A stretch of 51,588 nucleotides of DNA from Desulfobulbaceae bacterium (GCA_003249165.1 QKJV01000214.1:1-51588); one strand, 5' to 3'; counted from the first letter of the stretch, positions 19,220 to 33,496 are shown. The notes: generated from the sequence alone by a model not told the origin. A program made the numbers and translations.

Positions 19220-19942
19220 TCAAAAAATTCTTTTCCAGCTTTGTCCGGCATTAAATAAATCCTTTAGTGTAACTATCCCCGCGATTTGCAATTTTTTGGC
19301 TAGAAAAATAAAAAGATACGCTGTCTGGAGTGAGTCCTGTAACGCATCGTGACTGGAAAATGTCGGGAGTTGATAGGCTTTACTTAGATCTGCAAGATTA
19401 TAGGAAACCTGGAGGTTGAATTGATCATGATAATTTTCCCAGCAGGTTTCGGTATAAATTTGTGCCAGACGCATAGTGTCCAGACAGGGATTCTTTATGG
19501 TCGAATGGAAAATTTTTTTTGCAGATTTGTTAATATAACTTACATCAAGACTTACGTAATGCCCAACAAGAAGAGCAGGACCGCAGAACTCAATGAATTT
19601 TGGTAATATATCTTTTAATTTCGGAGCGTTGGCCAGTTGGTCAGGGGTAAGACGGTGTAGTAAAGTGCTGTCCGTAGCCTCGGTAATTTTATATGGTTTA
19701 ACAAGGGAATAAAAAGTTTCACCAGCAACGATTTTAAGATCTCTGACATGTACAGCTCCAATGGAAACTATCTCATCTTTGCGGGTAAGGCCTGTTAGTT
19801 CCGTATCAAAAACTACGAAATTGTAACTCTCAAGAGATCGATTCTGGTCAATCCCTTTGAACCATGCATGGTTTTGCGCAAAGATGGGATGTACGTTCTT
19901 TTTTTCCCGGGCCCAAAAAGGCCACATATTCATGAGTTCCAC
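19220..19942 (-). CDS. DEDDh 3'-5' exonuclease (DNA pol III epsilon-like), partner of the DUF294 protein
   Basis: VVFDTELTG (ExoI), VGHY..LD (ExoII), HDALQDS (ExoIII); lies immediately downstream of the DUF294 gene. Confidence 0.85.
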   Translation of the reverse strand: MELMNMWPFWAREKKNVHPIFAQNHAWFKGIDQNRSLESYNFVVFDTELTGLTRKDEIVSIGAVHVRDLKIVAGETFYSLVKPYKITEATDSTLLHRLTPDQLANAPKLKDILPKFIEFCGPALLVGHYVSLDVSYINKSAKKIFHSTIKNPCLDTMRLAQIYTETCWENYHDQFNLQVSYNLADLSKAYQLPTFSSHDALQDSLQTAYLFIFLAKKLQIAGIVTLKDLFNAGQSWKRIF

Positions 19943-19957
19943 AAAAGTTTATCCTTC

Positions 19958-21886
19958 CTATTCTCTGATGTGGAATTGCTGGTTGAGACTTGACTGGATT
20001 TTTCTTATGACCTCGAAAGATTCTTTTAAGGTTTTTTTCTCTAAATCAGAGAGATCGGCAGGATTAATATAATTATTCGGCTGCATGCCTTCTTCCAGCA
20101 TATGTAGTTGGTGAATGAGACGAAGTTGCATGAGAAATTCGTAAGCCTCAACAGTTTCAGTATATAATTCCTGTGATATATGCCGCTGTTCATTGAGGAG
20201 TTGTAAACGGCCCAAGGTATTTGTCTCGGCAATTCCATTTTTAAGAGCCATAAGTCTGGCAAAATCGACAAAAGGCACAAGCCCTCGTTCTTTAATGTTA
20301 AGCCTGTTTCTGTGCTCCCCATTCTTTTCTACAATCAGATTTTTGAAAAATGAAAGAGGTGGGCGTGATGTAAGGCAGAACCTCGCAAGATGATTAAGAA
20401 ATATTTCCTGCCTCGGTACAGCTTCACACAGATGACTTCTAAGATTTTCTGCCAGACTTTTATCGCCATAACCTGCCCTGAAATCAAAAAAAATTGTGGT
20501 GTTGAGTACCTCTTGTGCGTCTGGAATAAGCATCCAGCGATCAAATTCCCGTTTCCAACCTTTCAAATCTTTCCGAAGATCAGGATTCGAAGCCATTATA
20601 TTGCCAGGACAACGTGGATATCCACATTGAACGAGATGTTCTATTACTTCCTCCGAAAAAATTTTAAAGTAATTCTCTGCGTCTTGTCTGCTATCCTTGT
20701 CTGCAGGAATTTCGCATATTAGGGCATTATCCTGGTCTGTTCGAAATGTTTGCTCTCGTCTTCCCTCACTCCCCATGAGTATAAAGCAGAATTTTGCCGG
20801 TGGAGGTCCCATTTTTTCAATCATCAGATGAAGTATACGATCAAGTATCTGATCGTTTAATATTGTTATCATTCTGGTAATGTTGTTTGCCTTTGCCCCT
20901 TCTTCAATAAGGGATCTTACAACAAGCGGAACTTTAAGCGAGAGTTGATAGAGATCATCGATGCGACGTTGACTCATAATTTCCCTGAAAAGATATAGAG
21001 GAGATGTCCCTTGAAGAACCATGATGTCATGGGTGGTAACAACCCCGGCAATCTTATCCTGTTTTTTTATTCCTAAATGATGAATGCGTTTACTCATCAT
21101 TTCAAGTAACGCATCAAAACAGACCGCATGTGAGTCTATTGTATGAACAGGGACACTCATAATTTCTTTGACTTGTGTTTGATAATCAAGCCCGAGAGCA
21201 ACAACTTTAGTCCGCAAATCTTTATCTGTTATAATGCCGATAATATCTCCGTTCCCATCCTGTACAAGGAGAGAACCGATATGAAGTTGTGCCATGCGGA
21301 TTGCTGCATTCTGAACAGTATCTTCTGCATGAATTACTTGGGGCTCCCCTTTGACAATAGCTCCGACTTGTGCACTGAAAAGATATAGAGAACCTTCAGT
21401 CCTGGTTGAAACACGGATTTGACGTAATTCTTTATAGGCTGTTCTAACCAGTTTTTCCGACATCCGTCGAAGAAAGAAGGTGGTAACTTTTGGTACGGAA
21501 TGCAGTAAATCAAGAAACGCTTCCTTGCTGAATAGAAAACAGAAGGTGTCTTCTACGGTTTCCACATTAAGATTTGCATTCGTATTCCTTATAAGAGGGA
21601 GTGCACCAAAGTATTCCCCCTCTCCCCGAAAATCTTTAAGAGTGACTTTTCCCTGCTCATCTCGTAGATAGGTTTTAACTCCGCCTTTTTGTATTATGTA
21701 AAAATGGGTTACTTCTGTTGTATCCTGCTGGAAGATGAGAGTCTTTTTAGGAAAGAAGTCGATAATACACTGTTTGGAGAGTCTTTTTAATGTGTCATCG
21801 TCAAGTTCGTTGAAGGGAAGTGTTTTCTTGAGAAATTCCAGAACGATTTCAGGTGAAACTGCGTGAACATCTTGTTTTTGAGGCAT
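19958..21886 (-). CDS. cNMP-binding / CBS-pair / DUF294 putative nucleotidyltransferase
   Basis: N-terminal cNMP domain (GEYFG), two CBS domains (GIITDKDLR), MGSEGRREQTFRTDQDNAL NTase motif, CPGNIMASNP and DUF294_C. Start 21886 or 21895. Confidence 0.9.
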   Translation of the reverse strand: MPQKQDVHAVSPEIVLEFLKKTLPFNELDDDTLKRLSKQCIIDFFPKKTLIFQQDTTEVTHFYIIQKGGVKTYLRDEQGKVTLKDFRGEGEYFGALPLIRNTNANLNVETVEDTFCFLFSKEAFLDLLHSVPKVTTFFLRRMSEKLVRTAYKELRQIRVSTRTEGSLYLFSAQVGAIVKGEPQVIHAEDTVQNAAIRMAQLHIGSLLVQDGNGDIIGIITDKDLRTKVVALGLDYQTQVKEIMSVPVHTIDSHAVCFDALLEMMSKRIHHLGIKKQDKIAGVVTTHDIMVLQGTSPLYLFREIMSQRRIDDLYQLSLKVPLVVRSLIEEGAKANNITRMITILNDQILDRILHLMIEKMGPPPAKFCFILMGSEGRREQTFRTDQDNALICEIPADKDSRQDAENYFKIFSEEVIEHLVQCGYPRCPGNIMASNPDLRKDLKGWKREFDRWMLIPDAQEVLNTTIFFDFRAGYGDKSLAENLRSHLCEAVPRQEIFLNHLARFCLTSRPPLSFFKNLIVEKNGEHRNRLNIKERGLVPFVDFARLMALKNGIAETNTLGRLQLLNEQRHISQELYTETVEAYEFLMQLRLIHQLHMLEEGMQPNNYINPADLSDLEKKTLKESFEVIRKIQSSLNQQFHIRE

Positions 21887-21946
21887 TGGACGCATTCCCC
21901 TATTTTAAAATCTGTTTGCTGAATGAGCCGTAACTCTATGATTTTA

Positions 21947-23731
21947 TTAAACCCGGACGATCGGGAAATCGGTATAAGTTTTCTCCGCGGTATTTTTTTT
22001 TAGTTTGTAACAACTCGGCTTCGCAAAAGAGGTAAAAGTGTTGTTGGATGCGTAATCTTGGCGGATTTTGTTGAAATCTTGATGGCGGGTTAGAAAAGCA
22101 TCGACAATATCCGGGGCAAAATGCCGCCCTTTTTCCCTTTCGATAATGGCCATGGCTTCTTCATGTGGGCAGGCTGAACGGTATTTACGCACTGTGGTCA
22201 GTGCATCATAAACATCTGCAAGTGCGACAATACGTGCAGCCAAGGGAATCTCTTCCTCTCGTAACCCGTAAGGATAACCGGTACCATCCCATTTTTCATG
22301 ATGAAAATAGGCTATAGCCTTTGCCATGGATAAAAAAGATTGTTCCCCTGCGTGATCATCAACGGCCTTGAGAATGTTCCCTCCGTAAGTTGTGTGCTGT
22401 CTAATGATTTCGGTTTCTTCCGGCGTAAATCTCGATTGTTTCAGGAGAATTTCATCTGATATACTGACTTTACCGATGTCATGCAGAATAGATGAGTGAT
22501 AGAGGTCTTCAATATACTGGGCGTTTATGTATTCTTTATATTTATTTTTTGTTGCCAGTTCCCTGGCGAGTATTTGGCTGTATTCACGAATTCTTTCTAG
22601 ATGTTTACCGGTATGGGAGTCACGGTATTCTGACAATTTTGCCAATCCCAGTATGGTCGCAGTTCTTGTTTCCTGCACCGTTTTCAGCGATTGAAGCAGT
22701 TCATTGTCCATTTTTACACGGTTTGAAATATCTCTGATCAGCATCTGGAATCCGACCACCACTCCTTCTTTCCTGATAACAGTGGCGTTACATTCTACAT
22801 TGAAAAGAGAGTTGTCCTCACTAAGGAGCCTAAATTGAAAACCGGTAACATTTTCGCCGAGACGAAGTTGTGACAGCAGTTGCGACTGGATAGCCTGCCT
22901 ATCATCAGGATGTATAAGCTGAAGAAAATCGATATCCAGTTCCGCATCATGTAAATGTAAATTGGTAAAAAACCTTGGGTTAGCCAGAAGTATTTTGTTG
23001 TCCATATCGACGAGAATGACATCGTCGATAATGTTCTCATAAAGATCTCGATATCGACTTTCCGATTCTTTCAGTTCGTTGGTTCTTTTTTTGACATCAT
23101 CCTCTAATTTTTCAGCATAATATCCCAGTTTTGTCCCGATTTCACGTTCCTTCATACGTAGATTGAACTCGTTAATTCTGGCATTGTGTTCGGCATTGCT
23201 TTGCACGGTAATAATAATGATAAAGGAGATAAGAAAAAAAGAGTTTACGAGAAAATCGTGATAAGAGGTGGATGTCCAAGGGTTAAATATAAAAATGGGT
23301 ATTACATAAATTGCATAAAGAATTCCGCCTAAAAAAAATGTCTGATTCCGTGTCAAGGGAAAGATCGCGGCGAAAATGACGAGAACCAGCATGAGGCTTA
23401 CATAATAGAATGATGAAAACCCACCCATATTGACAATCATTGGCGAAATAGTAATAGCCGAGACGAGGTAGGCGGTCGTACCAAAAAGAAAGGGATAACG
23501 TTTTTTTTTGTCTTGGGAATTCAGGAGGAGTACAAAAAGACATACCAGAGATGCGGTTAATCTCCATATGAGAAATTTATTAAAATGATAGCGTACGTCA
23601 ACATAATCTATAACAGAAAACAATGGGAGCAGGATTGCCATTGTCCAGAGAATTACTTTGGCCCGCTGATGAAGCAGTTCCTGCATCTCATGATGGTATA
23701 TGGCAGCGTATTCCGGTTTAATCTGATTCAT
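21947..23731 (-). CDS. membrane sensor (about 6 TM)-PAS-HD-GYP cyclic-dinucleotide phosphodiesterase (paralog 1)
   Basis: Hydrophobic N-terminal ~180 aa, PAS (IHPDD...RDIS), HDIGK, HHEKWDGTGYP and ARIVALADVYDAL. Confidence 0.9.
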   Translation of the reverse strand: MNQIKPEYAAIYHHEMQELLHQRAKVILWTMAILLPLFSVIDYVDVRYHFNKFLIWRLTASLVCLFVLLLNSQDKKKRYPFLFGTTAYLVSAITISPMIVNMGGFSSFYYVSLMLVLVIFAAIFPLTRNQTFFLGGILYAIYVIPIFIFNPWTSTSYHDFLVNSFFLISFIIIITVQSNAEHNARINEFNLRMKEREIGTKLGYYAEKLEDDVKKRTNELKESESRYRDLYENIIDDVILVDMDNKILLANPRFFTNLHLHDAELDIDFLQLIHPDDRQAIQSQLLSQLRLGENVTGFQFRLLSEDNSLFNVECNATVIRKEGVVVGFQMLIRDISNRVKMDNELLQSLKTVQETRTATILGLAKLSEYRDSHTGKHLERIREYSQILARELATKNKYKEYINAQYIEDLYHSSILHDIGKVSISDEILLKQSRFTPEETEIIRQHTTYGGNILKAVDDHAGEQSFLSMAKAIAYFHHEKWDGTGYPYGLREEEIPLAARIVALADVYDALTTVRKYRSACPHEEAMAIIEREKGRHFAPDIVDAFLTRHQDFNKIRQDYASNNTFTSFAKPSCYKLKKNTAEKTYTDFPIVRV

Positions 23732-23975: not shown

Positions 23976-24560
23976 TCAGCGAATAGCCCTTTTTTTCTGT
24001 TCAATTTCTATATCGAGCTGTTTGAGCTGATTAATCAGATTTTTCATAGTCTGATTTTCTTTAGTCAGTATATCAATTTCCTGTCTCAAAGTTGTACACT
24101 GATGTTGAAGGGCTTCTTTATCTTTCACTAATGACATATTCGCTTTTTGCAAATATGTTTCGCGATTTTTGTCGGTTACCTCTTGTACTCTTTCTGGGCA
24201 ATTCGTTGCATTCAACAATTTCTTTATGTGCTGAATTTCCAGCCGAATATTTTTTTGAGGTTGAGAAAGTTTTTCATACTGATCAAGGGCGTTGATTGCC
24301 TTGTCGAAATCCGGTTCGGGATTGTTGCTGTGAGAATAAAGAAGAGAAAGATAGAGATAGGTTTCTGCTGTGGGAACTTTTTGTTCTGCATTTTTATTTT
24401 TTTTGAGACTATCTTCCAAAAAATGAATTTCTTTATTAACCTCAGACTTATTCAGCGCCAAATAATAGTCGGTTGATTTTGTGAACAGATGTTTCTCAAC
24501 ACATCCTGTGTTTGTGAAGAGAAGAAAGAGAAGAGGTAATATTTTTAGAATGTTTAACAT
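23976..24560 (-). CDS. lipoprotein with TPR-like helices and C-terminal coiled coil (QseG-like)
   Basis: Lipobox ...FTNTG|C, helical YLYLSLLY...DKAINAL segment, C-terminal coiled coil QLKQLDIEIEQK. Confidence 0.6.
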   Translation of the reverse strand: MLNILKILPLLFLLFTNTGCVEKHLFTKSTDYYLALNKSEVNKEIHFLEDSLKKNKNAEQKVPTAETYLYLSLLYSHSNNPEPDFDKAINALDQYEKLSQPQKNIRLEIQHIKKLLNATNCPERVQEVTDKNRETYLQKANMSLVKDKEALQHQCTTLRQEIDILTKENQTMKNLINQLKQLDIEIEQKKRAIR

Positions 24561-24590: not shown

Positions 24591-25967
24591 TTATTTGATG
24601 ACTTTCGGGATGAACACATTTTCTCTTTTAGTCTGGTCTGTTTTTTCCCCTCTGCGATTCACCACATATATACTTCCCTGTTGAGATTTAGCATGTTCTT
24701 TCAGTTCAGCCGCAATCTCCGCAATTTCAATATGGTTCATGTTTTTTACGTTTTCGTTAGTAACAACAGCAATTGAAATCGACATTATAGGAAATCTGAC
24801 TTTCAGACCTTGACGCGTAACACCCTCGATATAACCACGTAATTTATCTTCCGGTTTATAAAACGACAAAACCTTCAAATCAAATTTTCTTATAATAGCT
24901 TCGCAAATTTTTTTGTAATTGGTATTTTTGACTATGAGAGCGAAATCATCTCCTCCTATGTGGCCAACAAAATCATCGTCAGCCCCGTGATTAACCACAG
25001 CCTCTCTGATTACTTCGGCCGTTGTACGAATGACTTCGTTGCCTTTGGCATAACCATATCGATCGTTAAATGATTTGAAATTATCAAGATCGAGCATACA
25101 GAAAGCAAGATACTCTCCTGATTCCAAACGTTTTTTGAGGACATTTTCAATTGCCACTCCACCCGGCAGTCGTGTAAGAGGATTTGAATCAATATGAAGT
25201 TCCTCCAACCGCCCCAGTCTAGAAATCATGGAATTGAATGCTTTAGCAAGTTGACCAAATTCATCATGCGAGCTGACTTCTGTTAGATGAGTAAATTTGC
25301 CCTGCGATACAATTTCAGTAGCTTCTTTCAGTTTCTTAATAGATTGGGAAAGGCTTCTGCAAACAACTGCTATTGCGCCGAGGCCAAGCAATACTGCAAG
25401 TCCTGACAACATTAAGGTCGTTCGGAAAATGTTAATGCTAACATTGCCGAATTTTTGCATTTTTTGCTGTTGGTTTGATCTGGCAATATCTTCAATATGT
25501 TTGATTAATGAGAGAATTTCGTCAAGATTCCCTCTGAGCAACTGGCTGTCTGGATGAATCGATTCTTTGGAATTGATTGTACTGAATTGTTTCCTGTATA
25601 TTGCTTCGAATTCGTCATGGAGAGAGGCAAGCTGGGCAATGGGAATATTTTTCTGCTCTGGCAATTCATACACCTGGGTGATAAGATCATTAAAATCTTT
25701 ACCGCGTTGCCAGAACATGTCTTTCATCTCTGAACTTTTTAGAATCAAAAATCTCCGTCCATACGCTTCCTGGGCAAGAAGAGTATCACTCATTTGGTTG
25801 GAAAACTGGATCAATACAGCGTCATTTTTGAGGATATTCTTATTAATTTTGTCAAGTTCCTGCAAGCCTTGCAATGATATTGCTGCTATACAGACAGTAA
25901 CCAACATAACAGGCAAATAGCCAAGAATCATTTTTTCTTCAAGCGTTAACCGCAAAAGACGCTTCAT
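24591..25967 (-). CDS. membrane diguanylate cyclase (periplasmic sensor-HAMP-GGDEF)
   Basis: Two TM segments, HAMP (DEFGQLAKAFNSM), NPLTRLP, DLDNFKSFND and the HIGGDDF active site. Confidence 0.88.
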   Translation of the reverse strand: MKRLLRLTLEEKMILGYLPVMLVTVCIAAISLQGLQELDKINKNILKNDAVLIQFSNQMSDTLLAQEAYGRRFLILKSSEMKDMFWQRGKDFNDLITQVYELPEQKNIPIAQLASLHDEFEAIYRKQFSTINSKESIHPDSQLLRGNLDEILSLIKHIEDIARSNQQQKMQKFGNVSINIFRTTLMLSGLAVLLGLGAIAVVCRSLSQSIKKLKEATEIVSQGKFTHLTEVSSHDEFGQLAKAFNSMISRLGRLEELHIDSNPLTRLPGGVAIENVLKKRLESGEYLAFCMLDLDNFKSFNDRYGYAKGNEVIRTTAEVIREAVVNHGADDDFVGHIGGDDFALIVKNTNYKKICEAIIRKFDLKVLSFYKPEDKLRGYIEGVTRQGLKVRFPIMSISIAVVTNENVKNMNHIEIAEIAAELKEHAKSQQGSIYVVNRRGEKTDQTKRENVFIPKVIK

Positions 25968-26368: not shown

Positions 26369-26722
26369 ATGTTTGGAAATAAAATTTTTCCTTTTTCCTT
26401 TATTCTTTACCTGTCATCGTTTGCTGCTTGTACATCGTATCAACCTCCTTTTACACATTATTTGTGCCATACAATGACTTTTGCTGAAGTTTTGAAGGTG
26501 GCGAAGCAAAATAAAATGTCTGTTTATGAGGAGATTGCCGTCTATAAAGGTTATCGACTTTTGTGTTTTAAAAGTGATACCAGCGGCCCTGATGTGTTTC
26601 TTATTGTGAATCTGGAAGGGAAGCCTGTGTTGCGAAATTTTCAAAATGGCATGATGAATGATAGGATACTTATAAATTACGTCGAGGATTTTGACAGGCA
26701 TAATAATTTAGAAATTGACTGA
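26369..26722 (+). CDS. hypothetical small lipoprotein
   Basis: AAGGGGAG RBS, signal peptide with lipobox-like FAA|C; it is the best ORF in the gap. Confidence 0.6.
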   Translation: MFGNKIFPFSFILYLSSFAACTSYQPPFTHYLCHTMTFAEVLKVAKQNKMSVYEEIAVYKGYRLLCFKSDTSGPDVFLIVNLEGKPVLRNFQNGMMNDRILINYVEDFDRHNNLEID

Positions 26723-26877
26723 TAAGAAAGTTTTTTGTTGCCGGACGAAATTGTTGTGTGGGTAATTGTTTATTCCACGAGATAACAATATTGTCTGAAA
26801 TAAGCTTAGCGAAATATCCTTTAGGTAAGAATCTATTGATTCTTGCAGGGTTGCTAAATTGACTTTCATAAAGAAGA

Positions 26878-28575
26878 TTATTGAACGAGAATATTTAATC
26901 TGGCTTTTTGAAAGTCATTTTCTCGAGTAAGAAATGCATCAGTAACATCCGGGTCAAAATGTTTCCCTGAATCCTTTAAAATAATTTGTTTTGCCTGCTC
27001 ATGACTTATAGCTGATTTGTAGCACCTTCTTGATGTCAGGGCGTCATAGGCATCGGCAAGCGCAACAATTCGGGCCGATAAAGGAATTTCTTTGCCGGAT
27101 AACCCGCTTGGATAGCCGGTACCATTCCATTTTTCATGGTGATAATATGCGATCTGTTTTCCAATAGTCAGGAAGGATTGGCCTTTGGTCAGTTTTTCAC
27201 TCTCACACAATGCATCTCCGCCATAAACGGAATGACACATCATTATCTCATACTCCTCGGGTGTCAACTTCCCCGGTTTGAGCAGGATATTGTCTGGTAT
27301 GCCTACTTTACCAATATCATGTAAAATCGAAGATAAATAAATATCGTCAATATATTCAGGGGTAATATAATGTTGGTAAGCTGGATGTTTTGATAATTCC
27401 GCAGCAAGAATTTTTGAATACTCACGAATTCTTTCCAGATGATTTCCTGTGTCTCTGTCACGGAACTCAGCTAGTTTAGCTAATGCAAGAATAGCGGTTG
27501 TCCTTGATTTATCGATGAGATGATAAGATTCGAGGAGTTTTTTTTCCATTTTTTTTCTTTCAGTGATATCTCTGATGACAAGCTGAAATTCGAGCGCTCC
27601 TCCTTCTTTAACAATTTTTCTTGCATTACATTCAACGTTTATAGGCTGATCTCCCTTTCCAATGATTATAAACTGAACATCTTTTACAGGTTCACCCAGG
27701 AAAAGTTTAGGGAGCATTCCACCTGTTACGACAGCTAAACTGTCTGGATGAATTATGTTGAGGAGTGATTTCCCTGCGAAGCTATTTTGTGTAATACCAA
27801 TAATGTTATAAAAGTGATTATTTGCCACTATGACCTTTGCATTACAATCAATGAGCACAATCAGATCAAGAATATTTTCGTATAATTCTTTGTAACGCAG
27901 TTCAGATTCTTCTATTTTTTTTACTCGTTTAACAACCTCATCCTCGAGATTATGGGTATAGAAAGATAGATCCTTATTCATCGATTTTAGATTCATATTA
28001 AGATTAAATTTCCGGATCCTAGCTTTTGTTTCTTCGTTGCACTGAACAAGACTGACGATGATAAAGGCGATGAAAAAGAAACTGTAACAAAAAAAAATCT
28101 TGTTATTTTCGGCAGTGGGTTGGCTGAAGAGTACGACTGGAATGGCATAAGTAAGATAGAGGGTGAATCCCGCAATAGCGGCCTGTTTAATAGTAAGTGG
28201 CAATAATGCGAATCCGCCCACGGAGACGAGAAGGAGGCCAACATAGTATGATGAGGCGTATCCTCCTGTTTTCAATACCATTAGGGAGATGGTAAGACCT
28301 CCCAGAAGATAGGCCGCCAGCGTCAGGAACATTGTCAGAAGAGGATTGTTCTTCCTGCGCAGAATAAGAATGAATAGTATCAAGATAAAAGCAAAGGTTA
28401 GCCTATAACCGAGAAAACGAATAAAATGTTCCTTGGCTGCGAATGAATCCAGAAGTGAAAACAGGGGGTAAAAAACAATGCCGAGCTTAAAAAACGTGTT
28501 TGCCCTCTGCAGGAAAAATTTTCTGGTTTCCTGATCGTAAACAGATCTATATTCTAATGAGGTTTGTTCAATCAT
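26878..28575 (-). CDS. membrane sensor (about 6 TM, PhcS-like)-PAS-HD-GYP phosphodiesterase (paralog 2)
   Basis: TM domain with FSLLD...RL...MV.KTGG..S.YYVGL.L, PAS (IHPD...RDITERK), HDIGK and HHEKWNGTGYP. ATGA overlap with the upstream methyltransferase. Confidence 0.9.
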   Translation of the reverse strand: MIEQTSLEYRSVYDQETRKFFLQRANTFFKLGIVFYPLFSLLDSFAAKEHFIRFLGYRLTFAFILILFILILRRKNNPLLTMFLTLAAYLLGGLTISLMVLKTGGYASSYYVGLLLVSVGGFALLPLTIKQAAIAGFTLYLTYAIPVVLFSQPTAENNKIFFCYSFFFIAFIIVSLVQCNEETKARIRKFNLNMNLKSMNKDLSFYTHNLEDEVVKRVKKIEESELRYKELYENILDLIVLIDCNAKVIVANNHFYNIIGITQNSFAGKSLLNIIHPDSLAVVTGGMLPKLFLGEPVKDVQFIIIGKGDQPINVECNARKIVKEGGALEFQLVIRDITERKKMEKKLLESYHLIDKSRTTAILALAKLAEFRDRDTGNHLERIREYSKILAAELSKHPAYQHYITPEYIDDIYLSSILHDIGKVGIPDNILLKPGKLTPEEYEIMMCHSVYGGDALCESEKLTKGQSFLTIGKQIAYYHHEKWNGTGYPSGLSGKEIPLSARIVALADAYDALTSRRCYKSAISHEQAKQIILKDSGKHFDPDVTDAFLTRENDFQKARLNILVQ

Positions 28576-30110
28576 CCTTCTTTGGTAGCAAGGACAAAGA
28601 GGTTGACCTTTTCATCCTCCGTAAGTATTTCGACATTAGAACCAAATGGAGTGTCGGAGAAGATATCTACTAAATCCTCACCTGTACGGTAGATCAATTC
28701 CCAGTGAAGGATCTCATCCATGAAAATCTGGTCCGGATAAGGCGCAAAATTGCCAAGAAGCAGTTTGCCGCCAGGTTCGAGATGATCATGACATCGTTTG
28801 ATCATTGCCTGAAAGAGTCGACGATCGAGATAATCGCATAATCCGGCGGAGTAAATAATATGTTGTTTGCCGATCTCATGGCTGACCCGCCCTAAAGCCC
28901 ATTTAACTAGATTCTCATTCATTAGTCTAATGTTAGCATTATGGGCAAAAACGTTTACATATTGATTTGTATAGCGTAAAGCCTCTGAATCTATGTCCAC
29001 ACAGAGTGCTTCTATGGCATGCGAATAGTCGCAATTTGCAATAAAATCGAAGAGTTCACGGTTTGGTCCACAGGCCAAATTCATTATCCTTACCCGTGAA
29101 GATTGTTGACGAAACGTTTCACTTAAAGCTGCTAATTGTCCTGAGAGGAGTTTTCTGCGGCCTCTGATAGCCTTAGCTCCCGGGCGTTGCAAACACCAAG
29201 CGTCCACTATTTTCCCGAGTTTGCCATCTCCTTCAGCTTTGTCCTTATAAATATGCTCCATCATAAGAAAGTCGCCAGCATACCCTTTAGGCTTGTAATA
29301 AGCTCTTTCGACAAAACGGCTGCGCATAATGTAGGGGAAAACCTCTTTAAAAATATACCCCCACATATAATCACGATCTTCTTGATTTATCATTAATGCT
29401 TTGTATCTTGCAAGATTTTCATTGATGGTATCGAGTAGAGTGTAACAGTCTCCTATGATTTTTGGATCTGGATCCTCCTGAGCAACGTCTTTTTGAAGTT
29501 GAAAGGAAAGGTTGAAGAGTTGTGCTTTGAGTGTTTCCACTTCGTTGCTGATCTGATACCATGCTGGGCTGTTAAGCAATTTGCCTGGGATAGGTCTTGA
29601 TTCGTTAAACTCACGTCGTTTTGAAGCGAGTGATGCAGCATAACCAATTAATGGTTCGTTTTCTTCAAGAACCCTCCTGAATTTTTTGCATATAAGTTTT
29701 GTCAATGAGGTGACAAGCCGACCATAAAGATCTGGTTTTTCGTAGAACATTTTTTCAACAATAGCAACATCGAAGCAAAAAATTTCTGCATCCTTAGTAG
29801 CACGGATATCACGTACACGCGATCCACCGTCGAAAAAGCCTATCTCTCCAAAAAAATCACCTGACCCAAGTAAAGCAACAGTAATTTTTGTTTTATCCGT
29901 TGTATGGGAAACTTCTATAGTTCCTTTTTGGACATAATAGAAGGCGGTGCAGTCCTGCTGTAATGTTTCATTTGCTGATAAACAGATTTTGTTTGAATAT
30001 TCTAAAATTGCCGCATTAAGTTGTCCATTTCCGGTAAAAACTACTTCATCATCCATTGGAAATTTTATCGGGTCGTTAAAAAGCGGGGATAATTGAACAG
30101 CTTTGTTCAT
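28572..30110 (-). CDS. cNMP-binding domain + class I SAM-dependent methyltransferase (PhcB-like)
   Basis: N-terminal cNMP domain (GDFFGEIG...R); C-terminal RAYYKPKGYAGDF, AIRGRR, NLACGP (SAM motif I), YSAGLCDYL, LEPGGKLLLGNF and WELIYR. Confidence 0.8.
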   Translation of the reverse strand: MNKAVQLSPLFNDPIKFPMDDEVVFTGNGQLNAAILEYSNKICLSANETLQQDCTAFYYVQKGTIEVSHTTDKTKITVALLGSGDFFGEIGFFDGGSRVRDIRATKDAEIFCFDVAIVEKMFYEKPDLYGRLVTSLTKLICKKFRRVLEENEPLIGYAASLASKRREFNESRPIPGKLLNSPAWYQISNEVETLKAQLFNLSFQLQKDVAQEDPDPKIIGDCYTLLDTINENLARYKALMINQEDRDYMWGYIFKEVFPYIMRSRFVERAYYKPKGYAGDFLMMEHIYKDKAEGDGKLGKIVDAWCLQRPGAKAIRGRRKLLSGQLAALSETFRQQSSRVRIMNLACGPNRELFDFIANCDYSHAIEALCVDIDSEALRYTNQYVNVFAHNANIRLMNENLVKWALGRVSHEIGKQHIIYSAGLCDYLDRRLFQAMIKRCHDHLEPGGKLLLGNFAPYPDQIFMDEILHWELIYRTGEDLVDIFSDTPFGSNVEILTEDEKVNLFVLATKEG

Positions 30111-30152
30111 TTTGTACTCCTTGCAAGAATAGAAAGTCCGGTTAACTGATTT

Positions 30153-30545
30153 TCATACTGCCGAGACAGATTCTTGCTCTTGTCCATATTTATTGATAAT
30201 ATTCTTCAAATTTTCCAGATGTTGTTCCGTCAAAATGCCAAATTTAATACAGCGTCTACGCATAGTAATCTGGCTGAAAGGCTGTTCAGTTGGCAAAATA
30301 AAATCGTTTATCGTTGTATACGGAATACCTTCAAGGCAAATACCGTCATCAGCCAGCAAGTCAAGGCTATTCGCATCCCTTGACGGACCGTTGGTAGAAA
30401 AGTAACAAAAAGCGAGTCCGGCAACACTTATATCTATTATTTGTCCGATTTTATTTGCTGGTGGACGTAGAAATGCGTATGTTCCGTCCCTGGCAAAATA
30501 TCTTTTGTGTTTTCTTCTATCTCTTATCGGCTGTTCATATGCCAT
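30153..30545 (-). CDS. PilZ-domain c-di-GMP receptor
   Basis: RRKHKR (RxxxR) and DISVAG (D/NxSxxG) motifs. Confidence 0.88.
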   Translation of the reverse strand: MAYEQPIRDRRKHKRYFARDGTYAFLRPPANKIGQIIDISVAGLAFCYFSTNGPSRDANSLDLLADDGICLEGIPYTTINDFILPTEQPFSQITMRRRCIKFGILTEQHLENLKNIINKYGQEQESVSAV

Positions 30546-30730: not shown

Positions 30731-30819
30731 TTTTTATTCATATCTATCGGCGATAGAAATAAATACTTTACTAGAAGTTTTATTTACAGAAATTCCATTG
30801 CCATTTAGGAGTGATTTGT

Positions 30820-31959
30820 ATGTCCTGTTCATATAGAGGAATTAAATTACATTTTTTCCCAGATTTGACTGAGGAAGAATTTCAATTAATTTTACCTATG
30901 TTGCAGCATATAGATTTGAAGGAAAATGATACTGTCATATCCGTTGGTGCAAAACATCTCGGTTTGTTTCTTATTGTAAAAGGAAAAGTTCGGAGAGAAA
31001 TGATGTTGGGGGTCAGAATCGGAACGACTGGCCTAGAAACATGGCAGGAAAAAGAGCTTTTTGAGACGAGGTCCCCTGGGCAGTTTTTTGGAGAAGAAGC
31101 ATTAATTTCCAATAAGCCAGCTTTGGAGGAATGGGTTGTATTGGAAGATGCGGAATTTCTCTATATCTCTCAAGATATTTTGGCTCAAATTCAACAAAAA
31201 TCAGCGGTTGTATATGGGAAAATACTTCAGGTTCTCAGCGTCGCTTTGTTTGATAAAGCCTGCAAAGAACAAAGCTGGCTTGCTGCAAGTATAGAAAACA
31301 AAAAGCTCGTTAAAAAGATGCGCATTGAGCGCAAAAAAAATAATGCAATGCATCGCATTGCCCAAAGTACATCAATTAATAATGTTAATCAAACTCTTGA
31401 TACTATACTGGATGCCTGCATGGACTGTCTTGAAGTTCAGAAGGGTTCTATTATGATCTATAATCGTGGAGTGCTACGGGTTGAAGCTGCTTTCGGCAAG
31501 AATAAAGATAACATTTTGGGGCAAGTTCAGCAGATAAATGACAGTAGTGTTTCTGGACGTTGTTTTTTGACTAAAAAACCAATTTTTATTCAGAATATTG
31601 AAGAGGAGGAGGGACTGCAGAAAACACCATATCCTGGGCAGTATTGGAATAATTCTCTCATTAGCCTGCCACTGATAAGTCTTGAAGGAGAAAGTATTGG
31701 GGTGCTGAATGTAAGTAAGACATCAAGAGATATATTTACGGAAGAGGATATGAAAATTCTTGAGGATCTTTCTTATGAAGCTTCTGCTGCATTAGCACAT
31801 GAGATTTCTCTAGCACGTCTTTATCGTAATTTTCAAGAAACTCTCCTTGAAGTTAAACAACTGCAATCAAATTTGAAGCAGATTGAAGAAAAAATTTACT
31901 GTATCATCCAGGCCTCTTGTCCAATAATGGATGCAATGGGAGCCACAGCAAATGAATAA
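30820..31959 (+). CDS. cNMP-binding + GAF domain protein without an output domain
   Basis: FFPDLTEEEF...GLFLIVKGKV...GQFFGEEAL cNMP fold; GAF with GSIMI, SLISLPL, IGVLNV and FTEED; terminal coiled coil. AGGAG RBS before ATG 30820. Confidence 0.78.
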   Translation: MSCSYRGIKLHFFPDLTEEEFQLILPMLQHIDLKENDTVISVGAKHLGLFLIVKGKVRREMMLGVRIGTTGLETWQEKELFETRSPGQFFGEEALISNKPALEEWVVLEDAEFLYISQDILAQIQQKSAVVYGKILQVLSVALFDKACKEQSWLAASIENKKLVKKMRIERKKNNAMHRIAQSTSINNVNQTLDTILDACMDCLEVQKGSIMIYNRGVLRVEAAFGKNKDNILGQVQQINDSSVSGRCFLTKKPIFIQNIEEEEGLQKTPYPGQYWNNSLISLPLISLEGESIGVLNVSKTSRDIFTEEDMKILEDLSYEASAALAHEISLARLYRNFQETLLEVKQLQSNLKQIEEKIYCIIQASCPIMDAMGATANE

Positions 31960-33496
31960 AATAAGCCCCTACGAAGAGTTTGCCAGACGCAATCTGGAGA
32001 TCTCCGACCGCGAAAAGCAGACGGTCGATGCTGTTGCGGCTCACGGTAAAATGACAGCGAGGCAACGAATTGAATTTCTTTTCGATGAAGGAACATTTCA
32101 GGAAGTTGATCGTTTTGTTACACATCGCTGTACTGATTTTGGTATGGGAAATAAGAAAATACCAGGAGATACAGTAATAGCTGGCAATGGCCTGATAAAT
32201 GGCAGACTTGTCCATGCTTACGCTCAAGATTTCAGTGCTTTGGGGGGATCATTCTCTGAAGAAAACACAAAAAAAATTTATAAAATCCTGGATAAGGCAA
32301 TGCAGCTTGGTACACCATATATTGGATTGAATGACTCCGGCGGTGCACGCATTCAGGAAGGAGTTTGTGGTTTAGCTGGTGTTGCCGAATTGTTTTTTAA
32401 AAATACACAAGCATCAGGACTTATTCCTCAGATTTCCGCTATCATGGGGCCCTGTGCCGGAGGGGCAAGCTATTCCCCTGCTTTGACTGATTTCATTATC
32501 ATGGTTGAGGGGCAAAGCCATATGTTTGTTACAGGCCCCGAGGTGATCAAAGCCGTAACACATGAGGAAGTGAGCATGGAAGAACTTGGAGGCGCCCATG
32601 CTCATCATCGCCAAAGCGGTGTATCTCACCTCGTTGCAGGAAATGATAGAGAATGCATAGTTCTAATCCGTGAGTTGCTGGATTACATTCCTTCGAATAA
32701 CATGGAAGAAAGCCCATTGAAGAAATGCTTTGACGATCCTCAAAGACGTGAACCATTACTAAATGATTTCATCCCAAATGACTCACGTTCATCCTATGAC
32801 ATGAAATCCCTCATTCGAGCAGTTGTTGATGAGGGATCTTTTTTTGAGATACAAGGTGCTTATGCTGCTAATCTGGTTATTGGTTTTGCTCGTCTCAATG
32901 GTAAATCGGTCGGTATTGTTGCCAACCAACCTGCGTATCTGGCTGGAGCCCTTGACACAAATGCCTCCCGAAAGGGTGCCCGTTTTGTCCGTTTTTGTGA
33001 TGCGTTTAACATGCCGCTAATAACCTTTGTCGATGTTCCCGGATTTCTTCCCGGCAAAGATCAGGAACTCAGCGGTATTATCCGTGACGGTGCCAAGCTA
33101 CTTTATGCCTATTGCGAGGCCACTGTTCCAAAAATCAGTGTTATCACGAGAAAAGCTTATGGCGGTGCCTATTGCGTGATGTCGAGTAAACATATTCGTG
33201 GTGATTATAATTTTGCATATCCTGGAGCTGAAATCGCGGTGATGGGGTCGGAGGCGGCCATAAATATTATTTATAGAAAACAACTTACCCGTCAGCCAGA
33301 TGATACTTTCAAAAACCAGAAATTGGAAGAATACAGAGAACGGTTTGCTAATCCTTATTTTGCCGCATCACATGGTTATATAGACGAAATAATCATGCCA
33401 GAGGACACACGTTGGCGTCTTGTTTCAGCCTTGGAGCGCTTGAAAACGAAGGTGGCCAAAAATCCTCTCAAAAAACATGGTAACATGCCGTTGTGA
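31952..33496 (+). CDS. pccB: acyl-CoA carboxylase carboxyltransferase (beta) subunit, PccB/MmdA-like
   Basis: GKMTARQRI, DSGGARIQEG, GPCAGGA.YSPA, DVPGFLPG, RKAYGGAY and the KHGNMPL terminus. Confidence 0.9.
   Translation: MNKISPYEEFARRNLEISDREKQTVDAVAAHGKMTARQRIEFLFDEGTFQEVDRFVTHRCTDFGMGNKKIPGDTVIAGNGLINGRLVHAYAQDFSALGGSFSEENTKKIYKILDKAMQLGTPYIGLNDSGGARIQEGVCGLAGVAELFFKNTQASGLIPQISAIMGPCAGGASYSPALTDFIIMVEGQSHMFVTGPEVIKAVTHEEVSMEELGGAHAHHRQSGVSHLVAGNDRECIVLIRELLDYIPSNNMEESPLKKCFDDPQRREPLLNDFIPNDSRSSYDMKSLIRAVVDEGSFFEIQGAYAANLVIGFARLNGKSVGIVANQPAYLAGALDTNASRKGARFVRFCDAFNMPLITFVDVPGFLPGKDQELSGIIRDGAKLLYAYCEATVPKISVITRKAYGGAYCVMSSKHIRGDYNFAYPGAEIAVMGSEAAINIIYRKQLTRQPDDTFKNQKLEEYRERFANPYFAASHGYIDEIIMPEDTRWRLVSALERLKTKVAKNPLKKHGNMPL

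Follow-up and report, generated by a model that had tools for sequence, protein, structure and literature searches.

Can a signalling system of the Phc type, known as a speciality of the plant pathogens Ralstonia and Cupriavidus and their kin, be wired in another phylum to the second messenger cyclic di-GMP (c-di-GMP)? The question is raised by a three-gene operon in a 51,588-nucleotide (nt) stretch of DNA from a Desulfobulbaceae bacterium (GCA_003249165.1, QKJV01000214.1:1-51588), the whole of which is referred to here as the window. In a preliminary description of this DNA, the operon was proposed to encode a PilZ protein, a cyclic nucleotide (cNMP)-binding methyltransferase (MT) of the PhcB family and a PhcS-like receptor joined to an HD-GYP phosphodiesterase. 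The comparisons reported here favor a Phc-type module in which a lipid-like signal would be made, sensed in the membrane and converted into c-di-GMP turnover, a reading that, judged from sequence, is given a probability of roughly 0.62. The genes and domains of the operon, with the type of evidence for each, are as follows (aa, amino acids; ORF, open reading frame; SAM, S-adenosylmethionine; 6TM, six-transmembrane).

30153..30545, minus strand: small single-domain PilZ protein of 130 aa, first gene of the operon (ORF)
28572..30110, minus strand: cNMP-binding and PhcB-family SAM methyltransferase of 512 aa, putative signal synthase (ORF, Pfam, BLASTP, hhalign)
29748..29954, minus strand: cNMP-binding domain of the MT, aa 53-121 (PF00027)
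28578..29393, minus strand: MT domain with N-terminal extension, aa 240-511, the portion common to PhcB (hhalign)
26878..28575, minus strand: receptor with a 6TM PhcS-type sensor, PAS and HD-GYP domains, 565 aa (ORF, Pfam)
27931..28575, minus strand: 6TM sensor domain of the receptor, aa 1-215 (BLASTP, hhalign against PhcS-like kinases)
27535..27912, minus strand: PAS domain of the receptor, aa 222-347 (TIGR00229, 2.8e-16; Pfam PAS_9 and PAS)
26944..27444, minus strand: HD-GYP domain of the receptor, aa 378-544 (PF13487, 1.3e-31)

All three ORFs are present in the order first described, with a gap of 42 nt between the PilZ and MT genes, AAGGAG placed 7 nt ahead of the MT start, and an ATGA in which the MT stop codon overlaps the receptor start. 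To judge from this overlap, the receptor is translationally coupled to the MT. The arrangement recurs across genomes and is not a chance ORF pattern. A scan for promoters and terminators gave counts no higher than in shuffled sequences, and in NCBIfam no equivalog-level match was found for the PilZ protein, the MT or the receptor.

In Ralstonia and Cupriavidus, the methyltransferase PhcB makes methyl 3-hydroxymyristate or methyl 3-hydroxypalmitate, which is sensed by the kinase PhcS, and phcBSRQ homologues are present in Ralstonia, Cupriavidus and Paraburkholderia (PMC6989110, in excerpt, and abstracts). The PhcB and PhcS reference set used here consists of Burkholderiales operons of the phcBSRQ type. 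It was reached through a tblastn search of plasmids with the window MT, which returned mainly Rhizobium class I methyltransferases and one domain embedded in a polyketide synthase, together with a match on a Paraburkholderia graminis plasmid, in an operon of four genes for an MT of 468 aa, a sensor kinase of 445 aa and a pair of response regulators. The Paraburkholderia MT then served as the query that retrieved 80 Burkholderiales loci, including those of Ralstonia pickettii (L124) and Cupriavidus necator (L104 and L110), and in most of them the order of MT, kinase and two response regulators, the phcBSRQ layout, is kept.

The MT of the window shares its catalytic part with these PhcB-like proteins. 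By BLASTP, 278 aa align at 27% identity (6e-31), and in the profile comparison of the MT with PhcB, hhalign gives a probability of 99.9% and an E-value of 5.4e-34 over 252 columns (residues 256-509 against 202-461). The translation carries the motifs KPKGYAGDF, ACGP, YSAGLCDYL, PGGKLLLGNF and WELIYR, and the corresponding elements stand in register in the two groups: KPxGYAGD, the SAM motif (A/G)CGP, Y(S/C)AGLxDYL, PGGxL and WxLIYR. These common motifs are invariant in 19/19 and 14/14 sequences of the two alignments. Several homologues of 480-513 aa bear the JGI label 'extracellular factor (EF) 3-hydroxypalmitic acid methyl ester biosynthesis protein'. A tree of 61 MT domains (a 'quick' tree type, with long-branch warnings) places 35 cNMP-type MTs in one clade (SH-aLRT, the Shimodaira-Hasegawa-like approximate likelihood ratio test, 96) and 14 PhcB-like proteins in another (94), with long branches between them. 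The initial assignment to the PhcB family is supported by the homology and motifs of the catalytic domain, with the caveats that the MT lies outside the PhcB clade and has a different N-terminal domain. By these comparisons, the MT is a member of the same family as PhcB in a distinct subfamily, rather than an orthologue.

In place of the PhcB N-terminus, the MT begins with a Pfam cNMP_binding domain (PF00027, aa 53-121, 3.1e-13, 49.9 bits against a cut-off of 27.5), and its catalytic part has a partial match to Methyltransf_20 (aa 284-362, 4.8e-9). Residues G88, E89, G91, S97, R98 and R100 of the cNMP domain are invariant in 19/19 sequences, and a profile of the MT family matches, among structures in the PDB, CRP/CAP, Vfr, the regulatory domains of PKA and PKG, and the cNMP domain of the EAL enzyme Bd1971. 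The N-terminal domain is thus predicted to bind a cyclic nucleotide (cAMP or cGMP) through the Gly-Glu and Arg of a phosphate-binding cassette. The genome also encodes a CHASE2-class III nucleotide cyclase.

The N-terminal domain of the PhcB-like proteins (aa 1-180, loci L053-L133) is itself highly conserved and has no Pfam match. The idea that it is a cryptic PilZ domain was not supported: the best hhalign E-value against three kinds of N-terminal domain from distant MTs was 0.04, and against the small PilZ family it was 0.51. The MT family is large, with 4543 representatives at E<=0.001, and the ESM Atlas places the MT part only in generic methyltransferase clusters with PF12147, PF13649 and PF08242.

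The receptor shows the second half of the relationship. A hydropathy scan predicts six transmembrane (TM) segments with loops of at most 11 residues, and the segments are nearly co-positioned in the receptors of the window and a PhcS-like protein (L053). This membrane part carries TGGYASSYYVGLLL, the motif that had been quoted as recalling PhcS-type sensors. By BLASTP, residues 10-204 align with residues 9-202 of a PhcS-like kinase over 195 aa with one gap (E 4e-5). When 23 receptor N-termini are compared with 17 PhcS-like N-termini as profiles, hhalign returns 99.5% and an E-value of 4.5e-22 over 210 columns, end to end, such that residues 1-212 of the receptor span the whole alignment of the PhcS-like sensor domain. 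The controls were clean, with an E-value of 0.14 for the reversed profile and 0.068 for the best of 20 column shuffles. The suggested likeness of the membrane domain to PhcS is borne out by this result and by the shared 6TM layout, and on this evidence it and the sensor domain of PhcS-like kinases are homologous. Matches to MASE8 (PF20968) lie below the 26.2-bit cut-off of that family, at 19.7 bits for a PhcS-like kinase and 20.4-21.5 bits for several receptor homologues; the 6TM part of the window receptor itself has no MASE8 match at E<=10 in the scan, though a precomputed list names PF20968.

The output of the receptor is of another kind. Instead of a transmitter of HisKA and HATPase_c domains, Pfam finds PAS (aa 227-339) and HD_5 (PF13487, aa 378-544, 1.3e-31, 110.1 bits against a cut-off of 27.2). 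A model for NosR-family c-di-GMP phosphodiesterases also matches the HD-GYP domain (8.9e-37), below the cut-off of that model. The HD-GYP motif is defined as HD together with HHExx(D/N)GxGYP (bioRxiv 10.1101/2021.11.05.467447, in excerpt). Both elements are intact in the receptor, as LHDIGK at position 418 and HHEKWNGTGYP at 479, and in 27/28 of the listed HD-GYP receptors, including both of those in the window.

The pairing of MT and membrane sensor is conserved well beyond this genome. Among close relatives, a set of 16 loci of the same family and order with 22 full-length cNMP-type MT genes, 20 of the 22 are directly followed by a 6TM-PAS-HD-GYP gene and the remaining two lie directly after one. 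Four genomes (L044-L047) have two complete tandem MT-receptor pairs each, and in two more (L042, L043) the receptor gene of the first pair has a second MT copy after it. The survey was extended to a sample of 401 Desulfobacterota genomes, of which 39 have an MT match at E<=1e-10. From these, the loci of 11 of 13 further full-length matches were fetched (G349 and G421 were omitted as congeners of fetched genomes), along with 9 of 24 distant matches. In the other Desulfobacterota families, a 6TM gene adjoins the MT gene at 11/11 cNMP-type loci, downstream in 10 and upstream in one, and an adjacent 6TM gene is found at 4/9 distant loci. The output domains attached to these membrane sensors differ as follows (L139 and L143, sisters of L138 and L142, were not scanned).

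PAS-HD-GYP: L134, in two copies
HD-GYP alone: L140 and L141
PAS-HisKA-HATPase-REC: L135, L137, L138, L142 and L144
kinase without PAS: L136
PP2C (SpoIIE), distant loci: L148 and L151
PAS-GGDEF-EAL, distant locus: L151, second gene, so that one synthase stands beside two different receptors
hybrid kinase, distant loci: L152 and L153

The neighborhood survey thus agrees with the earlier proposal that the synthase-receptor pair was kept while the output was swapped, as the pair is conserved and its outputs vary by lineage; on the receptor tree, at least two changes of the HD-GYP label are needed, which fits output swapping. The trees add that the pair moves together. An MT_A clade of 18 rows (98) has as its partners an R_A clade of 17 rows (96), and an R_B group of 12 rows (SH-aLRT 82) contains the partners of the second MTs together with 'orphan' receptors. 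Because the MT_A and R_A clades match and the tandem second pairs fall into groups of their own, the pair has been duplicated and inherited as a unit. These observations bear on the alternative that a generic methyltransferase, a generic phosphodiesterase and a generic PilZ protein with independent functions happen to be neighbors. Each of these domains is common alone, and linkage of the PilZ gene is confined to three genera, as such an explanation would have it. It is nevertheless very improbable, as it conflicts with the overlap of the MT stop and receptor start, with the pairing across many families with changing outputs, with the concordance of the MT and receptor trees, and with the homology of both partners to a known synthase-receptor pair.

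As only the 6TM part is constant among the partner receptors, the MT appears tied to the membrane sensor rather than to any one cytoplasmic domain, and the fact that nothing but a membrane domain is constant suggests a ligand that is hydrophobic and is perceived inside the membrane. The same constancy counts against a CheR-like adaptation system, in which the MT, controlled by cNMP and PilZ much as CheR1 is by MapZ, would methylate the receptor beside it or some other protein, and no small-molecule signal would be involved. Weak matches to the CheR SAM domain do occur in the family (7.9e-8 in the PilZ-MT of L145 and 0.0011 in a PhcB-like protein), and complexes of MapZ with CheR1 are among the structural matches of the PilZ model described below. 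However, these CheR matches cover the generic SAM-binding region only, the common receptor part has almost no cytoplasmic surface to be methylated, and the closest named relatives of the MT are signal synthases, leaving this explanation improbable.

The N-terminal domain of the MT varies within the family, between cNMP-binding, PilZ and PhcB types. Several distant MTs have, rather than a cNMP domain, an N-terminal PilZ domain above the Pfam cut-off (43.4 bits in L051, 41.3 in L153 and 32.5 in L152). In family f59 (L145-L147, L149 and L150), PilZ-MT fusions some 485 aa long match a CheR-like SAM domain and have no 6TM receptor gene beside them, so that any partner of this subfamily would lie elsewhere in the genome.

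RxxxR and (D/N)xSxxG are the motifs of PilZ c-di-GMP receptors. The 130-aa protein of the window has no Pfam PilZ match even at E<=10, and the naming of the first gene as PilZ is nonetheless upheld, because its homologues match PF07238, the motifs are invariant and a structural model retrieves PilZ structures. PF07238 is matched by 26/31 homologues at E<=1 (best 5.8e-5), and R11 and R15 (RxxxR) with D38, S40 and G43 (DxSxxG) are invariant in 31/31. An AF2 (AlphaFold2) model built from the 31-row alignment reaches a mean pLDDT (predicted local distance difference test) of 80.4 and has the PilZ beta-barrel fold with a C-terminal helix. In a Foldseek search it retrieves PilZ structures first, with MrkH, the YcgR PilZ domain, Alg44, MotI, PlzA, PP4397, VCA0042 and MapZ among the top rows at probabilities of 0.97-1.00, a TMq of 0.65 for YcgR-PilZ, and modest E-values (9e-4 and weaker). 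An earlier model from 10 close orthologues (pLDDT 59.5) retrieved nothing at E<=0.001, and a PilZ-family profile run against PDB sequences gave just a chance-level match to a guanylyl cyclase (E 0.68). The PilZ gene lies upstream of the MT gene in 11/11 loci (L033-L043) of three genera; no small PilZ gene was found in L044-L048 or L134-L153.

In the mechanism proposed here, the PhcB-family MT would use SAM to convert a carboxylic, probably fatty-acid-derived precursor, most likely into a hydrophobic methyl ester, and its N-terminal domain would make this methylation depend on cAMP or cGMP. The ester would partition into membranes and be sensed by the PhcS-type 6TM domain of the receptor, which would relay the signal through PAS to the intact HD-GYP phosphodiesterase and so change the level of c-di-GMP. 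PilZ proteins would then read c-di-GMP, one of them being the small PilZ encoded first in the operon. This protein may act on the MT instead of, or besides, downstream targets, and such feedback, which would close a loop, is suggested by the PilZ-MT fusions of sister clades and the MapZ-CheR1 precedent. In relatives, a PilZ-sigma54 activator would serve as a second c-di-GMP reader, one that has been lost at the window locus. The product, its secretion and diffusibility, any density dependence and the sign of each step are drawn by analogy with PhcB and PhcS, and the cNMP gating and the target of the PilZ protein are proposals too.

The activator is encoded in relatives by a fourth gene, for a 716-aa protein of PilZ-PAS-PAS-sigma54 activator-HTH_8 architecture (L036:4057-6207). 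It directly follows the receptor gene in nine loci (L033-L041, split in L035) and the second MT copy in L042. Its site in the window is the following.

26723..26877, no strand: site of the fourth gene of relatives, absent here (comparison with the loci of relatives)

Where L036 has about 2.39 kb, the window has only about 250 bp, and tblastn finds no match to the activator in the window. No orthologue was found elsewhere in the genome either, the best match there being 59% identical and without the PilZ part, and an independent run (X3, records 11 and 12) yields contigs that tile the junction of the loss. Between the small PilZ and the PilZ domain of the activator, a comparison gives an E-value of 0.17 and thus no sign of recent duplication. 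A second MT copy lies on contig C352 (L052:382-1920), 84% identical to the window MT and its sister in the tree, with no PilZ gene upstream; of the receptor gene, a 9-codon remnant of the start is all that follows the MT stop codon. Either decay of a duplicate or heterogeneity of strains or of the genome bin could explain this copy. The neighbors of this copy are genes for a major facilitator superfamily (MFS) transporter and MoeA.

Several observations weigh against the proposed module. The MT is only 27% identical to the PhcB-like proteins and falls outside their clade, and the N-terminal parts of the two do not align in hhalign; PhcB of Ralstonia solanacearum, moreover, was not in the reference set. 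The source assembly is in 497 contigs with a contamination of 6.5%. The comparison of loci indicates that the activator has been lost here by a clean deletion, and since the receptor of the C352 copy has gone as well, the circuit may be decaying in this organism. No PhcA-like regulator or exporter was found linked to the module. The family is also not always paired: an adjacent 6TM gene was not found at 5/9 distant MT loci, nor at any of 64 loci (0/64, by hidden Markov models, HMMs) in a metagenome scan. That scan was seeded with ten cNMP-type MTs of about 480 aa from a clade different from that of the window MT and yielded 81 MT genes, 64 of them with at least 500 nt downstream in which 6TM genes could be sought; the neighbors are not conserved, 125 of them falling into 104 clusters. 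Family members without a partner may therefore have other roles, and the pairing, on the loci compared, characterizes certain clades rather than the family as a whole.

Some of these points suit a cell-autonomous explanation. The substrate of the MT would then be a free fatty acid or a lipid resident in the membrane, the 6TM domain would keep watch on that pool within the same cell, and c-di-GMP would follow the state of cNMP or of lipid metabolism, nothing being signalled between cells. The evidence for MT-receptor pairing fits this equally well, the shortness of the TM loops suggests that the ligand lies inside the membrane, no exporter or channel of the outer membrane is linked in the window (all FadL-type genes being on other contigs), and many MT family members have no receptor next door. 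Against it, the product of the homologous PhcB is reported, in abstracts, to be a secreted signal, and duplicated tandem pairs and an orphan receptor follow more readily from distinct signals than from a single bulk state of the lipids. Sensing confined to the cell is regarded as unlikely.

The Phc-type reading can be widened, tentatively and with less chance of being right than wrong, to a widespread and so far undescribed class of second-messenger-gated lipid-ester cassettes. Its synthase would be switched by a swappable N-terminal nucleotide sensor, either cNMP-binding or PilZ, and its PhcS-type 6TM sensor could be plugged into almost any output, be it HD-GYP, GGDEF-EAL, a hybrid kinase or PP2C. 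In the lineage of the window the loop would be closed: signal acting through HD-GYP would lower c-di-GMP, and the small PilZ would bind and retune the synthase, giving autoinduction, with the PilZ-sigma54 activator as the transcriptional arm. If so, the tandem pairs and orphan receptors would represent separate chemical 'dialects' and eavesdropping among sulfate reducers of sediments.

Compared with the Phc system, the module has a homologous MT catalytic domain with its KPxGYAGD extension, a homologous 6TM sensor domain and a synthase gene directly upstream of the receptor gene. It differs in output (PAS-HD-GYP rather than HisKA-HATPase), in having no PhcR- or PhcQ-type response regulators, in the cNMP-binding N-terminal domain and separate clade of its MT, whose product is putative, in the PilZ gene upstream, and in its phylum. 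Fatty-acid-type quorum signals are also converted into c-di-GMP degradation in the Rpf systems, where RpfR of Burkholderia is a PAS-GGDEF-EAL receptor for BDSF (the Burkholderia diffusible signal factor, DSF) and RpfC/RpfG of Xanthomonas link DSF to an HD-GYP regulator. However, the Rpf synthase (RpfF, a crotonase), the signal chemistry and the sensor domains are unrelated, and the Rpf HD-GYP protein is a separate response regulator.

Two further systems resemble parts of the module. In Pseudomonas aeruginosa, the single-domain PilZ protein MapZ, when loaded with c-di-GMP, binds the SAM methyltransferase CheR1 (PDB 5xly and 5y4r, ranks 21 and 24 among the matches of the PilZ model). Here too a small stand-alone PilZ lies beside a class I methyltransferase, and sister clades fuse PilZ to an MT of the window type; yet CheR1 methylates chemoreceptors, whereas the family of the window MT includes a small-molecule signal synthase, and binding between PilZ and MT is hypothetical here. 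In Bd1971 of Bdellovibrio, whose cNMP domain matches the MT-family profile at 9e-9, that domain is fused to an EAL phosphodiesterase, a precedent for cNMP control of an enzyme from a second signalling pathway, although there the control falls on the phosphodiesterase itself rather than on a synthase of a signal.

In the literature searched, which did not extend to subscription journals, neither a PhcB with cyclic nucleotide binding nor a Phc-HD-GYP system in Desulfobacterota or Desulfobulbaceae was found, in agreement with the earlier statement that no described lipid-ester circuit of such a layout was known in sulfate reducers or Desulfobacterota. By its gene content, the locus looks like an undescribed variant of Phc cell-to-cell signalling. 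If this is correct, fatty-acid-methyl-ester signalling extends to another phylum and to lineages of anaerobic sulfate reducers, and the operon would be a compact example of a quorum-type input wired straight into c-di-GMP, gated by a second messenger and with interchangeable outputs. Homologues occur in the cultured relatives Desulfobulbus elongatus, D. rhabdoformis, D. alkaliphilus and Desulfogranum mediterraneum, which makes the question directly testable.

Three more features of the window accompany the operon.

21947..23731, minus strand: paralogous 6TM-PAS-HD-GYP receptor of 594 aa, 'orphan', R_B type (Pfam; 6TM HMM, 1e-84)
24591..25967, minus strand: HAMP-GGDEF protein, conserved neighbor and possible c-di-GMP source (Pfam GGDEF, 4.2e-17, partial)
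30811..31959, plus strand: divergent cNMP-binding and GAF protein, conserved neighbor (Pfam)

The orphan receptor has no adjacent MT and groups with the receptors of second tandem pairs from related genera, to which it is orthologous, and so may be a 'solo' receptor. Apart from the two receptors of the window, the genome has no match to this 6TM domain. Beside the orphan, at 19220-21895 on the minus strand, are genes for a cNMP-binding-CBS-DUF294 nucleotidyltransferase and then an RNase T-type exonuclease.

The 12 kb around the operon is rich in nucleotide-signalling genes, namely those for the cNMP-CBS-DUF294, HAMP-GGDEF (GGDDF) and cNMP-GAF proteins, and three cNMP-binding proteins (MT, cNMP-GAF and cNMP-CBS-DUF294) are encoded within it. 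The HAMP-GGDEF gene is syntenic in L033 and L035-L039; the signature of its product is GGDDF, the Pfam match covers just the first 100 positions of the domain, and cyclase activity is putative. The cNMP-GAF gene adjoins the PilZ gene in 10 loci (L033-L042), its link to the module being putative. In the plus-strand stretch 30811-33496, its last 29 nt are shared with the beginning of a carboxyltransferase gene, a biotin carboxylase gene comes next, and the cNMP-GAF gene is apparently co-transcribed with these acyl-CoA carboxylase-type genes, an arrangement kept in relatives. Finally, conserved proteins of 194 aa (23976-24560, minus strand) and 117 aa (26369-26722, plus strand) have lipoprotein-like N-termini, with Cys after a hydrophobic stretch; neither has an informative Pfam match, and both are syntenic in the genus.

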